Positions 8,346 through 58,472 of a stretch of DNA of 64,000 nucleotides are shown here, one piece after another; position 1 is the first letter of the stretch; every line of letters starts with the position of its first letter. Under the pieces are notes generated by a model. That model searched no databases. It had not been told where the DNA came from and saw only the letters and a list, made by a program, of their open reading frames with translations. The stretch comes from a virus. The position numbers were made by a program, and so were the translations under genes. The DNA lies in the IMG/VR virus record IMGVR_UViG_3300025834_000005; one strand, given 5' to 3'.

Positions 8346-9674
8346 TTATTTTCCACCTACATAGCTCATGTTCTTCATCAGTCTTCTCATGTGCTCATCA
8401 TTTACATAGGTTGTTTTTTCTGTCACCTCATCTAATTTTTGTTTTGAGGACGGTTGTATAGAGGCTGATACTTTCGACTCAAGACTTTCGGTAATAGGTT
8501 TCTTTCCTTTTTTCATTTCTGAAATAACGGACTTATACTTATTCTCTGATTCAGTGATGTCACTAATGTTTTTAAACTCATTAATAACGTTAATTTTTTC
8601 TTGCTGTGTTAATGCCAAATCTTCGTTTATAAGAATATTGTTAACGTGTGCAAGGTTAGTGTTGAATACAGCCATCTCTTTCAATTGGGTTCTGTATTTT
8701 CCTAAAGCTGTTTTGTATTTTTCAAGAGTTTCAGCAACTGTCTCATTCAATTTAACGGCGGCAATCAATTTCTTGGTTACTGTTTTGTTTTCATTGATAA
8801 GTCCAGCAATTTTTGCTTTAGATTCTTGCATAAATGCAGGTGACTGATCCAATTCTCCTTTGCTTAGATATTCACTATTAGGTAGATGTCTACCAACAGT
8901 ATTTCTCCTTGCAGTGTATGAAACACCGTGAGATTCTTCAATTTCATCCTCATTTACAACATCATTGTTACTGTTTAAAGCACTGTCAATTTCTTCATCA
9001 GATGGAAGTCTCATTTCATAAACTGAATCAAGATCATTATCGTCAGCAGCTGCATTGTCCGTGAATGATGTTTCTGCTCCAGCCTCTGCATCGTCGTTAC
9101 CAACTTCAGCAGTTTCTTCGCTATCAATACCCATTGCGGCAATAATACTATTTAACTTATCTCTCAATTCTTTAAGTTCATGACCGATATTCTCGTCATC
9201 AGCTTCGGCAGTTTCTTCGCCTGTGGCTTCAATACCTTCGATGCCTTGTGCACCAGCTTCTTCGCCCGTACCTTCTGCGCCTTCAATACCCGATAATTCT
9301 CTTTCAATTTCTTCCATTGTCAAAGTCATATCGCCAGCATTATCGTCAGCATATTCTGTTTGATCAAATTCTTCTTTGATTACATCCTTAACAGGAATGT
9401 CTTTACCTTTAACTTTTTTTACTTCGGTCTCTTTGGTTTTCATAACAGAATCTTTATTTTTTTTATCATCCGATTCTTCGGATTCTTTATTTTTGTCAAC
9501 ATCATCCTTATCGGATTCTTTTGCTGATTTTTTATTCTTCTTAAACTCTTCTTTAATCAATTCGCTTATTTTTGTTGGATACTCCTCAGCCAATTTATTC
9601 TTAGCATTTACACTTGCTGCTTCGAATAATTGATTGTATTCCACTAAAGCGTCTTTTAATAACTTGTTTGCCAT
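8346..9674 (-). CDS. scaffolding protein (acidic, coiled-coil)
   Basis: 442 aa, very D/E/K-rich with helical heptad-like stretches. Lies between protease and capsid genes. N-terminus has NQLFE. Confidence 0.65.
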   Translation of the reverse strand: MANKLLKDALVEYNQLFEAASVNAKNKLAEEYPTKISELIKEEFKKNKKSAKESDKDDVDKNKESEESDDKKNKDSVMKTKETEVKKVKGKDIPVKDVIKEEFDQTEYADDNAGDMTLTMEEIERELSGIEGAEGTGEEAGAQGIEGIEATGEETAEADDENIGHELKELRDKLNSIIAAMGIDSEETAEVGNDDAEAGAETSFTDNAAADDNDLDSVYEMRLPSDEEIDSALNSNNDVVNEDEIEESHGVSYTARRNTVGRHLPNSEYLSKGELDQSPAFMQESKAKIAGLINENKTVTKKLIAAVKLNETVAETLEKYKTALGKYRTQLKEMAVFNTNLAHVNNILINEDLALTQQEKINVINEFKNISDITESENKYKSVISEMKKGKKPITESLESKVSASIQPSSKQKLDEVTEKTTYVNDEHMRRLMKNMSYVGGK

Positions 9675-47673: not shown

Positions 47674-47747
47674 AGGGTAGTTATGCAGAGACTATACAAC
47701 GCAAGTTTGGAACTTGCGGTTCGTGGGTTTGAATCCCACCTACCCTA
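47674..47747 (+). tRNA. atypical tRNA-like gene, anticodon UGG, degenerate D-arm (no GG) and T-loop tttgaat (no C56)
   Basis: Acceptor agggtag/ctaccct. Anticodon arm gcaag-tttggaa-cttgc. T-arm gtggg-tttgaat-cccac. Confidence 0.45.
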
Positions 47748-47768
47748 CAAATTATTAGTTTGTAATAT

Positions 47769-51081: not shown

Positions 51082-51153
51082 AGTTCCGTAGTTTATATTG
51101 GTGTGAATCCACGCAGGGTCGTGGGGTTGCTGGTTCAAATCCAGTCGGGACTG
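51082..51153 (+). tRNA. tRNA-like gene of undetermined identity (6-nt anticodon loop as folded)
   Basis: Acceptor agttccg/cgggact. D-loop has TTGGT. T-arm gctgg-ttcaaat-ccagt. The central arm ccacg-cagggt-cgtgg does not give a canonical loop. Confidence 0.35.
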
Positions 51154-51211
51154 CTTTAGCATTATGAGAGTACTTACCCTTAAGGTATGCCAACCTAAAT
51201 TGCTTTTTTAT

Positions 51212-56062: not shown

Positions 56063-56134
56063 GCTCCTATAGCTTAATGGTAAAGCCTTCGACCTTTAAT
56101 CGAATGACCCCTGAATCAGTATCAGGTGGGAGCA
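56063..56134 (+). tRNA. tRNA-Lys (UUU)-like variant with C33 and a non-canonical T-loop
   Basis: Acceptor gctccta/tgggagc. Loop cctttaa. T-arm cctga-atcagta-tcagg. Confidence 0.55.
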
Positions 56135-56484: not shown

Positions 56485-56566
56485 GGGTAAGATGGTAAAT
56501 TGATTAAATCAGAGGCTTGTAACACCTTCGTCATCGACTATGTAGGTTTGATTCCTACCTTACCCA
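56485..56566 (+). tRNA. tRNA-Tyr (GUA), long variable arm
   Basis: Perfect acceptor gggtaag/cttaccc. Loop ttgtaac. Variable cgtcatcgactat. T-arm gtagg-tttgatt-cctac. Confidence 0.7.
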
Positions 56567-57221
56567 CAATGATCGCAGTAATTATATTTAAGAATTTCTG
56601 CGATGTCTGTTCTTTGAAATATTTTTGGGTTGATGTATCGATGATACAAAATTCGATTCCATGTTCAATACATGCTTGAAATTTACGATCATCGTTATTT
56701 TGAATTTTAACCAGTTTATCTTGACCGTAGATTGGCTCGTAATGAAATATTCCATTTAGCTCGAAAGCAAGTTTTAATGACGGAATATAAATATCAAGTT
56801 CTGAATTAATAGCTTCTTTACGATTGAAATGAATTTCAAGACAAGGATAAAGCTTTGTAAGTTCTATTTCAAGATATACTTCAAGTTTTGATCGTCTATT
56901 GCCAGTCGTCTTATGTTTATTATTATAAGTGGCTGCACATGACTTACAACAGAAGTTATTAACATTATCTTTCACTGATGAAAATTTCTTTAAAAAGGAT
57001 ATTCCACAATTATTGCATTTTACGTTTATCTTTGTAATCTGTGATAGTGCCATGCATTTTCTTGAGCAAAAATCAATACTGTTAGTCGTGTTACCTTTCA
57101 AATAGTACTTAATTAGTTTCTTTTCAACAAAAAAGGTATTTTCACATGTTAAGCATTTGCATGGCAATTTGTCAGTGCCCTTAGCTTGGTCGTATTCAAT
57201 ATCAATGTATAATGGATTCAT
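56538..57221 (-). CDS. zinc-finger + PD-(D/E)xK (Vsr/DUF559-like) homing endonuclease
   Basis: Two CxxC...FCSxxC modules, then ELDIYIPSLKLAFELNGIFHY, paralogous to LDFKHKNKIIEYNGNYWH in the terL intein. The TAG stop and last 29 nt are antisense to tRNA-Tyr. Confidence 0.7.
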   Translation of the reverse strand: MNPLYIDIEYDQAKGTDKLPCKCLTCENTFFVEKKLIKYYLKGNTTNSIDFCSRKCMALSQITKINVKCNNCGISFLKKFSSVKDNVNNFCCKSCAATYNNKHKTTGNRRSKLEVYLEIELTKLYPCLEIHFNRKEAINSELDIYIPSLKLAFELNGIFHYEPIYGQDKLVKIQNNDDRKFQACIEHGIEFCIIDTSTQKYFKEQTSQKFLNIITAIIVGKVGIKPT

Positions 57222-57651: not shown

Positions 57652-57726
57652 GGCTCATTATATTAGCGGTCAGATGGCGGAATTCTAAACTCCGAGACGT
57701 GGGTTCGAGTCCCACACGAGCCACCA
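57652..57726 (+). tRNA. suppressor-type tRNA, anticodon CUA (reads UAG), with genomically encoded CCA
   Basis: Acceptor ggctcat/acgagcc (one A-C mismatch), A73, then cca. D-loop agcggtca. Anticodon arm cggaa-ttctaaa-ctccg. T-arm gtggg-ttcgagt-cccac. Confidence 0.6.
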
Positions 57727-57744
57727 AAATTTATAAATAAGTAA

Positions 57745-58032
57745 ATGAATAAAATAATTGCGGAAGATTTATATTCTGAAAGTCCTGATAAATTTAAGGT
57801 GTTTAGAGAATGGGGTGCTGTTAATGCGTCAGTTACAAAATTTTTGTATAACGCAACACCTAAGACATTTATATTTCTTTTTGGTGAAGATGAAGGAATG
57901 AGACTTTGGGGACATTTTTGTAATGACTGCAATAGAAAAGATTTTACGTTATTTAAGACGTATTTATCGTCAACACAATTTAATGATCTGCTTGTGAATA
58001 TCCATTACAATGAATTAATATTCTGCTTATGA
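57745..58032 (+). CDS. hypothetical protein
   Basis: 95-aa ATG ORF. Confidence 0.55.
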   Translation: MNKIIAEDLYSESPDKFKVFREWGAVNASVTKFLYNATPKTFIFLFGEDEGMRLWGHFCNDCNRKDFTLFKTYLSSTQFNDLLVNIHYNELIFCL

Positions 58033-58074
58033 AATGAATATTTATAAATCAATAAAAGAATTTAAAAAAAAGAC

Positions 58075-58105
58075 TTGCATAATTGAATTATTTAGTTTAT
58101 TTTTG
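58075..58105 (+). promoter_or_regulatory. Bacteroidota sigma-A-type promoter
   Basis: cTTGca-N20-TAttTTTG, 35 nt before ATG 58140. Confidence 0.6.
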
Positions 58106-58139
58106 CAGAGTTAAGTATTTAATATAAAAACGTAGTATT

Positions 58140-58472
58140 ATGAAGAAGTAGATTAAGTTAGTAACGATCACCAGAAAAGACCTGAAAGCAGGTTACCAGT
58201 TATGCCAAACCTCACATTCTGTGGCCGAGTTTGCATACACTTATCCAGATCATTTCAATGATTGGATGCGAGATTCCAAATATCTCATTTCATTGTCTGT
58301 CGATAATGAAGACCACCTCAAAACCCTTTTTGACAAATTAAAGACCAATGGTGCTACTATTGTGGCATTCACTGAACCTGATATTAACGATCAGCTGACA
58401 TCGATATGTTATTACGGCACACCTGAGTTGAGAAAATTAACTGACCATTTGGATTTAGCATTAAAAAATTAA
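58140..58472 (+). CDS. PTH2-family peptidyl-tRNA hydrolase-like protein with an in-frame TAG at codon 4 (58149-58151)
   Basis: Reads MKK-TAG-IKLVTITRKDLKAGYQLCQTSHSVAEFAY...W...ISLSV..E..L..L...LKTNGA....FTEP....TSICYYG......LTDHLDL. This matches the PTH2 pattern LVVRxDLKMGKGKxAAQCSHAA. The track ORF starts only at GTG 58221 and would lose that conserved N-terminus. Confidence 0.55.

Follow-up and report, generated by a model that had tools for sequence, protein, structure and literature searches.

A candidate translational gate in standard-code phages: PTH2-like genes with a leader stop codon and a matching suppressor tRNA

Suppressor transfer RNAs (tRNAs) are well described in the phages that use genetic code 15 (TAG = Gln), in which a tRNA with anticodon CUA, tRNA(CUA), decodes in-frame TAG codons (Borges et al., 10.1101/2021.08.26.457843; Peters et al., PMC9523058; a jumbo-phage survey, PMC13037316), and the authors of work on recoded phages propose that expression of the suppressor gates the translation of a set of genes. 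In these phages the interrupted genes are many and mostly of late or lysis function, TAG occurs at many positions, and it has been abandoned as a stop; the suppressor tRNAs are presented as agents of genome-wide code change, with no hydrolase mentioned (10.1101/2021.08.26.457843, PMC13037316). Here we describe a different arrangement in 64,000 nucleotides (nt) of viral DNA from IMG/VR record IMGVR_UViG_3300025834_000005 (the window, by which we mean the whole stretch analysed), where an amber-suppressor tRNA lies beside a gene for a protein of the PTH2 family of peptidyl-tRNA hydrolases that has an in-frame TAG as its fourth codon. In contrast to the code 15 phages, the standard code is used, a single gene with one fixed 5′-proximal stop appears to be involved, TAG terminates translation elsewhere, and ochre versions (TAA with anticodon UUA) are found among the relatives.

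A conserved stop that is decoded as sense is also the basis of viral programmed read-through, familiar from Qbeta A1 and retroviral gag-pol (PMC7026636, PMC13517186), and both there and in the arrangement proposed here the amount of product is set by competition with a release factor. Viral read-through uses host near-cognate tRNAs, adds a C-terminal extension to a complete protein and is leaky (a few percent), whereas here the phage would supply a cognate suppressor and termination would give only a tiny peptide. Engineered suppressor gates and feed-forward loops (PMC7969014, PMC13276491) have the same AND logic, with an early amber codon and a separate suppressor tRNA; these are synthetic, whereas the phage pair would be natural and evolutionarily conserved.

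The encoded protein shares its fold and family (PF01981) with Pth2/PTRH2 (Bit1), and its gene, like known phage cases, is located in a tRNA island; it differs from archaeal Pth2 in that the phage clade has Tyr for the Lys of the G-K motif, and hydrolase activity is predicted. Very short open reading frames (ORFs) favour drop-off of peptidyl-tRNA, and the bar minigenes of phage lambda are toxic to Pth-deficient hosts. The lambda case also brings together a two-to-four-codon ORF and a peptidyl-tRNA hydrolase, but the bar minigenes are not in frame ahead of a hydrolase gene and no suppressor tRNA is involved. PTH2 genes have been noted in jumbo phages with no link of a tRNA to a stop in the gene (Iyer et al., PMC7824862). 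According to the excerpted text of Morgado and Vicente (PMC5966550), the tRNA arrays of cluster C mycobacteriophages hold two unusual isotypes beyond the 20 standard ones together with a PTH2-like gene, and within that excerpted text the tRNA is not linked to a stop codon in the gene. A full-text literature search found no prior description of a suppressor tRNA paired with a stop in a PTH2 gene, an absence that is not proof. Suppressor-tRNA recoding and read-through in phages are already known, and what is new is that phages with the standard code pair such a tRNA with one dedicated gene whose stop covaries with it.

The suppressor tRNA and the interrupted gene

The window (33.7% G+C) is part of a 328,453-bp metagenomic contig with many tRNA genes and phage-type genes. 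ARAGORN finds 19 tRNAs across it, the last being a tRNA(CUA), and the PTH2-like gene starts 413 nt downstream on the same strand. The features of the pair are as follows.

57652..57726, + strand: amber suppressor tRNA of 75 nt, anticodon CUA, loop UUCUAAA, discriminator A73, encoded CCA (ARAGORN, Rfam)
58140..58148, + strand: leader, the start ATG and AAG AAG (Lys-Lys), up to the in-frame stop (sequence; homologue comparison)
58149..58151, + strand: in-frame TAG, codon 4, proposed read-through site, followed by a purine (ATT) (86/86 homologues have a stop here)
58152..58472, + strand: PTH2-like coding sequence, 106 codons and a TAA stop; the full proposed coding sequence is 58140-58472 (Pfam PF01981, fold, selection)
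58221..58223, + strand: GTG used as the start by gene callers (83-amino-acid product P0001), rejected as the real start (N-terminus lost)

A first-pass annotation of the window, made from the DNA and a list of its ORFs, had claimed a cloverleaf with anticodon loop TTCTAAA (CUA) and an encoded CCA at 57652-57726, and both tRNA finders agree: ARAGORN calls a tRNA at these positions, and Rfam model RF00005 scores it at 51 bits against a gathering score of 29. The cloverleaf has an ordinary elongator shape except for mismatches at A6.C67 and A31.C39 and a weak D stem, and the stop-complementary anticodon sits in a 7-nt loop with U33 and a purine at position 37. ARAGORN labels the molecule 'Pyl', an assignment made from the anticodon. 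The architecture of tRNAPyl includes a 3-nt variable loop, a 6-bp anticodon stem, a small D loop and a non-canonical T loop; in the window tRNA the anticodon stem has 5 positions, the variable loop is about 5 nt long and the T loop is GTTCGAG, and we therefore discard the label.

The interrupted frame reads ATG AAG AAG TAG ATT AAG TTA GTA from 58140, with the TAG at 58149-58151, and continues to the TAA at 58470-58472, as the first-pass annotation had it. The same annotation had given GTG 58221 as the first conventional start past the TAG and as one that removes the N-terminal segment. It is indeed the first ATG, GTG or TTG, 24 codons downstream, and a product begun there would have neither strand 1 nor the greater part of helix 1, and would be missing the invariant Gln19 and His22. 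Because these elements precede the GTG, the 83-amino-acid product of the gene callers cannot be a complete domain, and its score against the Pfam PTH2 profile is 15.4 bits, compared with 23.0 bits for the post-TAG protein.

The segment after the TAG had been read as the N-terminal strand and helix of a PTH2-type hydrolase, and this identification stands. A search of the 106 post-TAG residues with PF01981 gives an alignment from profile position 1 at 23.0 bits (E 9.5e-5), a borderline score that lies exactly at the curated cut-off of 23 bits; 25 of 27 family members match the profile, the best at E 8e-8. A profile of the family run against the PDB finds archaeal Pth2 structures (2zv3 at E 4.4e-7). 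The AlphaFold model of the post-TAG protein, built with 39 sequences, has a predicted local distance difference test score (pLDDT) of 96 and a predicted template-modelling score (pTM) of 0.88, and the top 13 PDB matches found with Foldseek are all Pth2/Bit1 chains (E down to 2e-8; template-modelling scores 0.73–0.82). Strand 1 in this model comprises residues 2–8, between the TAG and GTG 58221. We regard the PTH2 alpha/beta fold predicted by the model as certain. The motif Q-x-x-H and the motif E-P-D-x-x-x-Q-L-T are invariant or nearly so in the phage family. In archaeal Pth2 the active site comprises the catalytic Lys of the G-K motif and the Asp and Thr of a D-x-G-x-T-Q motif; the position of that Lys is aligned with Tyr in the window protein, and with Tyr, Gln or His in the phage clade.

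One claim of the first-pass annotation is not supported, namely a host-type promoter at 58075-58105. A sigma-70 scan finds no + strand site there, the region has fewer promoter-like matches than its own shuffles, and by eye the segment matches only about 7/12 consensus positions of the sigma-70 type. No terminator-like site is found on the + strand between the tRNA(CUA) and the gene, and the two may therefore share a transcript.

Leader stop and suppressor anticodon among the relatives

A search of a large protein collection yielded 120 relatives of the PTH2-like protein. DNA of homologous loci was drawn from viral, metagenome and genome collections and the frame was read directly, giving 86 distinct phage-contig genes, with identities down to about 43%, to which the following counts refer. 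All 86 have an in-frame stop upstream of the KLV strand, separated from its Lys by one codon (79 genes) or two (7 genes), so that the homologue comparison proposed in the first-pass annotation finds the stop conserved at the leader position throughout. Of these stops 81 are TAG and five TAA; TGA does not occur. An in-frame ATG is present 1–9 codons before it in every gene and within four codons in 82/86, the commonest spacings being two codons (58 genes) and three (13); the stop is accordingly one of codons 2–5 in 82/86, and codon 10 at the latest. The preceding codon is AAG or AAA in 62/86. The codon that follows is GTA (30), ATT (28), GTT (25) or ATA (3), and in no case ATG, GTG or TTG; a natural start after the stop, which the first-pass annotation had named as telling against its proposal, is thus not what the homologues show.

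A codon alignment of 79 sequences reveals synonymous change under amino acid conservation from the first post-stop codon onward, with five synonymous codons used at Arg8 and four to five at Thr5 and Ser23. This codon-level selection after the stop argues that the region is translated in this frame. The conserved residues Gln16 and Gln19 are encoded by CAA or CAG in all of the sequences that have Gln there (77 and 78 of the 79, respectively) and never by TAG, arguing that TAG is not a general Gln codon. As judged from these alignments, a stop has been selected for at this single position in the leader, and the pattern expected of programmed read-through, a conserved in-frame stop with selection in frame downstream, is seen in 86/86. 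We note that in one huge-phage locus (L122:6319-6380) a second copy of the leader and of the opening residues, 12 codons long (ATG AAG TAG ATT AAA ATT ACT ATT...), directly follows the PTH2-like gene; this 'MK*IKITI' sequence was considered as a second gene and set aside as a remnant, apparently of a duplication.

The same 86 loci were searched with ARAGORN for suppressor tRNAs, and in 70 of them a tRNA(CUA) or tRNA(UUA) lies no more than about 4 kb from the gene and on its strand. The distribution by leader stop is as follows.

Leader TAG (81 loci): suppressor found in 67, anticodon CUA in 67/67; none found in 14
Leader TAA (5 loci): suppressor found in 3 (L009, L019, L057), anticodon UUA in 3/3, no CUA; none found in 2

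Mismatched pairs of stop and anticodon number 0/70, and a Fisher exact test of the match, computed by hand and ignoring phylogeny, gives p = 1/54,740. The suppressor is always on the strand of the gene, 0.16–3.8 kb upstream in the main clade and 1–2.2 kb downstream in a second clade. The three UUA tRNAs score 65, 65 and 54 bits with Rfam, and their 7-nt loops are normal. The TAA genes are scattered over four separate positions when the proteins are placed in a neighbour-joining tree, and the UUA tRNAs belong to two backbone classes, one with L009 and L019 and the other with L057, each of which also contains CUA tRNAs. The scatter of the TAA genes together with the two backbone classes implies that stop codon and anticodon have switched together at least two times, and probably in three independent events. 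On this comparative evidence the stop codon of the client gene tracks the anticodon of the suppressor, on three or more separate branches. Two homologues with uninterrupted N-termini fit the same pattern of association: the one in L027, 48% identical, has no suppressor tRNA in 20 kb, and that of an Aeromonas phage has no tRNA in its 10-kb locus.

The suppressor tRNAs at all of these loci fall into several unrelated backbone classes, and despite this the anticodon loop CUCUAAA is common to 61 of 77 distinct molecules; efficient engineered amber suppressors have this loop. Non-Watson-Crick pairs at 31:39, of which A31.C39 in the window is an example, are found in 12/77 suppressors compared with 13/374 other tRNAs of the same loci, and this enrichment among suppressors is real, though it is not general. 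Transfer-messenger RNA (tmRNA) genes are also present in some of the same translation islands (L021/L028:18598-18998; L025:16015-16434; and in phage Bxz1, L123:11280-11716), and an Rfam scan of 45–64 kb of the window finds none.

Use of TAG elsewhere, and the arrangement in cultured and huge phages

Within the window TAG behaves as an ordinary stop at the two places cited in the first-pass annotation, 2275-2277, where it ends a 79-amino-acid ORF, and 56538-56540, where it ends a 227-amino-acid ORF (56538-57221, − strand), and no other long ORF in the 64 kb is split by TAG or has a TAG leader. Over the roughly 790 kb of related loci, a stop separates two ORFs of one frame only where two genes abut. 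We also scanned all loci for a leader pattern (ATG, up to four codons, a stop, then a long ORF with no early start), and almost all of the TAG matches are the PTH2-like gene; the small remainder consists of ORFs extending from tRNA genes or with later starts.

The arrangement is also present in a cultured phage, Tenacibaculum phage pT24, whose complete genome (234,670 bp, 28.7% G+C) was read. The leader of its PTH2-like gene is ATG AAA TAG ATT, and a tRNA(CUA), one of three tRNAs found in total by ARAGORN, lies 2.5 kb upstream; the deposited coding sequence starts 43 codons after the TAG. There are no other TAG-leader genes in the complete genome, 33/272 long ORFs end in TAG, and in the five cases where TAG separates two ORFs of the same frame, these appear to be neighbouring genes or antisense frames. 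The PTH2-like gene thus appears as the only in-frame client of the pT24 suppressor detectable by the scan used. Neither of the marks of code 15, many TAG-interrupted genes and the loss of TAG as a terminator, is found in the window or in complete pT24, and the absence of genome-wide recoding asserted in the first-pass annotation therefore extends from the one to the other. The pT24 protein is a fusion (L124:4953-5900, record positions 194089-195036), in which the PTH2 domain (32 bits) is joined to about 200 further residues at the C-terminus that have a weak, sub-threshold match to an HD domain (E 0.06).

A translated search (tblastn) of GenBank phages finds the PTH2-like family in 222 records, 205 of which are cluster C mycobacteriophages. 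In Bxz1, Alice and RoMag the leader is GAA GGC ATG TAG GTG, and in Phabba GTG TAG GTG; the tRNA(CUA) lies about 130–300 nt downstream of the gene end, and in the record for Alice it is annotated as 'tRNA-suppressor (cta)'. Six records of uncultured huge phages (0.46–0.74 Mb, two with identical match coordinates) all have a leader of ATG, 1–3 codons and TAG. One of these genes (at about 5992-6312 in L120, LR756501.1, 735 kb) has a second in-frame TAG mid-gene in addition to the leader TAG, and two tandem tRNA(CUA) genes lie 2.4 kb downstream (8421-8575); from these features, TAG may have a broader sense-codon role in the L120 genome.

Database annotations of this family are affected by the stop in a systematic manner. 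Relatives on long contigs (100–360 kb) are called as N-terminally truncated proteins from an internal GTG or ATG, whereas those on contigs of 0.5–3 kb are called full-length and begin 'MK(K)Q[VI]KLV'. We considered the Gln at the TAG position as evidence that TAG replaces a Gln codon and rejected it, because the contig of one such protein (P0012) itself reads ATG AAA AAG TAG ATT; the 'Gln' in database homologues is an artefact of a gene caller switched to code 15. The artefact ranges over protein matches P0002-P0120 and L116:1441-1773, and some sources label these proteins 'chaperonin GroEL' or 'lactoylglutathione lyase'. One contig of 362,763 bp (L113, JBAZIW010000001.1, also represented as L002 and L039) carries a tRNA island with the suppressor/PTH2 module and is deposited as part of a 'Candidatus Paceibacterota bacterium' metagenome-assembled genome, yet is identical to an IMG/VR viral genome; it is probably a phage in a bacterial bin.

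Several further observations concern the window and the related loci. The Cys-rich 227-amino-acid ORF is the only window ORF of at least 100 amino acids that ends in TAG, and read-through would add 39 codons to it. In some relatives, a gene of about 100 amino acids ending '...LN' abuts, in frame and with zero spacing, a gene starting 'MKDFELLKRTYP', which encodes 89 amino acids in most loci read (e.g. L002:9081, L011:7808, L018:9140, L061:2106, L084:5210). The separating stop in 29 distinct sequences is TAG in 22, TAA in seven and TGA in none, although TAG makes up only about 9.5% of long-ORF stops in these loci. This pair may be a second amber-suppressor client, yielding a read-through fusion; the seven TAA cases adjoin CUA tRNAs, and there is no strict covariation. 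Within the window, two 311-amino-acid ORFs on the opposite strand of the tRNA island, one with a weak GIY-YIG match, may be homing endonucleases. The two tRNA finders differ at three other sites: ARAGORN reports a 'tRNA-???' with a two-base anticodon at 51082-51154 that is absent from the Rfam output and a tRNA-Pro at 47674-47748 that is not on the Rfam list, and Rfam reports a tRNA at 56063-56134 (53.5 bits) missed by ARAGORN. The flanking ORFs of 95 and 147 amino acids are not conserved partners, being present in seven and ten loci, respectively, and have no Pfam match. A nucleotide search (blastn) with the 1.5-kb region finds no match among GenBank phages.

A proposed gate, its rivals and its meaning

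The first-pass annotation had proposed that production of the hydrolase is gated by the phage suppressor tRNA, and conservation of the stop (86/86) and its covariation with the anticodon (67/67 and 3/3) support this; we consider it likely that the suppressor gates production of the PTH2-like protein. Ribosomes would start at ATG 58140 and reach the UAG at codon 4, where the tRNA(CUA) would compete with the UAG-reading release factor (RF1 in bacteria). Without the tRNA, Met-Lys-Lys would be made and released, and with it the full 110-residue enzyme, such that the amount of hydrolase would follow the level of active, charged suppressor. This supposes a charged tRNA, with a host synthetase as the presumed charging enzyme, and efficient read-through at the leader stop. 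An early stop would be a sensible site for a gate, with nothing costly made when it is closed. The inserted residue would lie in a tail ahead of strand 1, and any amino acid would therefore probably do, a tolerance that fits the diversity of suppressor tRNA backbones.

A number of observations weigh against such a gate. No suppressor was found at 16 of the 86 loci, two of them with TAA, where the upstream flank is in every case shorter than 1 kb, and none was found within 6 kb of four of the huge-phage loci (L118, L119, L121, L134). In the tRNA(CUA) of the window two stem positions are mismatched and the D stem is weak. A nearest-neighbour comparison of the suppressors with 375 other phage tRNAs gives no consistent isotype that would point to their amino acid identity. 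TAG and TAA stay common terminators (TAG for 12% of long ORFs in pT24, TAA for 68% in the UUA loci), and suppression must therefore be tolerated or modest. The change of Lys to Tyr at the catalytic position leaves peptidyl-tRNA hydrolysis by this protein a prediction. Finally, in the four cluster C phages a GTG follows the TAG, with GAAGG 7 nt upstream in Bxz1, Alice and RoMag; an ordinary start at this GTG without suppression is thus possible, and the cluster C arrangement is compatible with gating without being proof of it.

The cluster C leaders lead directly to what we see as the strongest rival, though still an unlikely one, in which the leader is a mini-ORF whose terminating ribosomes re-initiate at the next codon (ATT here) and the suppressor is incidental or only additive. 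The very short, conserved distance from ATG to stop would suit re-initiation, as would the GTG directly after the stop and the Shine-Dalgarno-like GAAGG 7 nt before it in cluster C, and ATT and ATA are weak bacterial start codons. The codons after the stop in 55/86 homologues are GTA or GTT, which are not known start codons, and for the same reason the ATT at 58152, offered in the first-pass annotation as a non-canonical start, is rejected as a general answer. Re-initiation also gives no reason for the covariation of stop and anticodon or for the tRNA staying beside the gene. It would, moreover, alter only the basal level, since any decoding of the stop by the tRNA gives the full-length, in-frame protein; a relationship of more suppressor, more hydrolase would hold even with re-initiation.

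The remaining rivals fare worse. Reassignment of TAG to Gln throughout the genome (code 15), with the recoded late genes lying outside the window, seems very improbable to us: a tRNA(CUA) is present, the window covers only 64 kb of the 328-kb contig, gene callers wrote Gln for TAG on short contigs, and L120 has its second in-gene TAG and two tRNA(CUA) genes, but the window has no other TAG-interrupted ORF and at least two ORFs ended by TAG, the ~790 kb of related loci contain no split pairs other than neighbouring genes, complete pT24 uses the standard code, in-gene TAG occurs only at the leader with conserved Gln codons never TAG, and the TAA/UUA variants do not fit. Slightly less credible still is that UAG serves as a start codon read by an amber initiator tRNA, so that the protein begins Met-Ile-Lys-Leu-Val. 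The PTH2 domain does start exactly one codon after the stop, and archaeal Pth2 begins M-K-M-V-V. Initiator tRNAs are marked by mismatched positions 1:72 and by an anticodon stem with three G:C pairs at its foot, whereas in these suppressors 1:72 is paired and the three G:C pairs are missing, and the upstream in-frame ATG, for which an initiator model has no need, is kept in 86/86. The fresh pseudogene that the first-pass annotation had allowed for, in which codon 4 of a decaying gene has mutated to a stop, would account for the premature stop and for gene callers reporting only a truncated ORF; with the same stop in 86 distinct sequences, to about 43% identity, and in cultured phages, with intact downstream frames that vary synonymously, and with a complete PTH2 domain predicted, we reject it and give it almost no weight.

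The purpose that a suppressor-gated hydrolase would serve, for which the first-pass annotation had suggested timing or feedback, is a more tentative matter. The phages keep TAG and TAA as common terminators, and with an active suppressor some normal stops must therefore be read through; ribosomes would then stall on 3′ ends and peptidyl-tRNA would accumulate. The account we prefer, while holding it to be somewhat short of an even chance, is feed-forward coupling of the dose of hydrolase to suppressor activity, by which the recycling enzyme for peptidyl-tRNA would be made only during suppression and in step with its level. Negative feedback, with the hydrolase acting on the acylated form of the suppressor tRNA itself, would fit the data equally well, as would a simple timer that signals that the phage tRNAs are mature and charged. 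We speculate, with less confidence than in the feed-forward account, that the tRNA and the stop-gated enzyme form a self-regulating module, in which synthesis of the enzyme reports the level of suppression and its activity limits suppression or cleans up after it.

The pairing described here would give a concrete job to the suppressor tRNAs of standard-code phages, in the form of a dedicated, co-evolving client gene, and would be a natural gene-specific translational gate of the type built by synthetic biologists. It corrects a systematic annotation error, by which these proteins are truncated on long contigs, given a spurious Gln on short ones and started after the stop in cultured phages. 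Because the arrangement is present in cultured phages, in pT24 and, with the caveat noted above, in more than 200 cluster C mycobacteriophages, it can be tested at the bench. It would tie nonsense suppression to peptidyl-tRNA recycling, and would bear on how the reassignment of a stop codon can start without killing the phage. If the suppressor tRNA and its client do form a self-regulating module, standard-code phages could carry a nonsense suppressor safely, which would explain the persistence of suppressor tRNAs in pT24 and the cluster C mycobacteriophages, and the module would represent a standing intermediate toward full stop-codon reassignment in phages.

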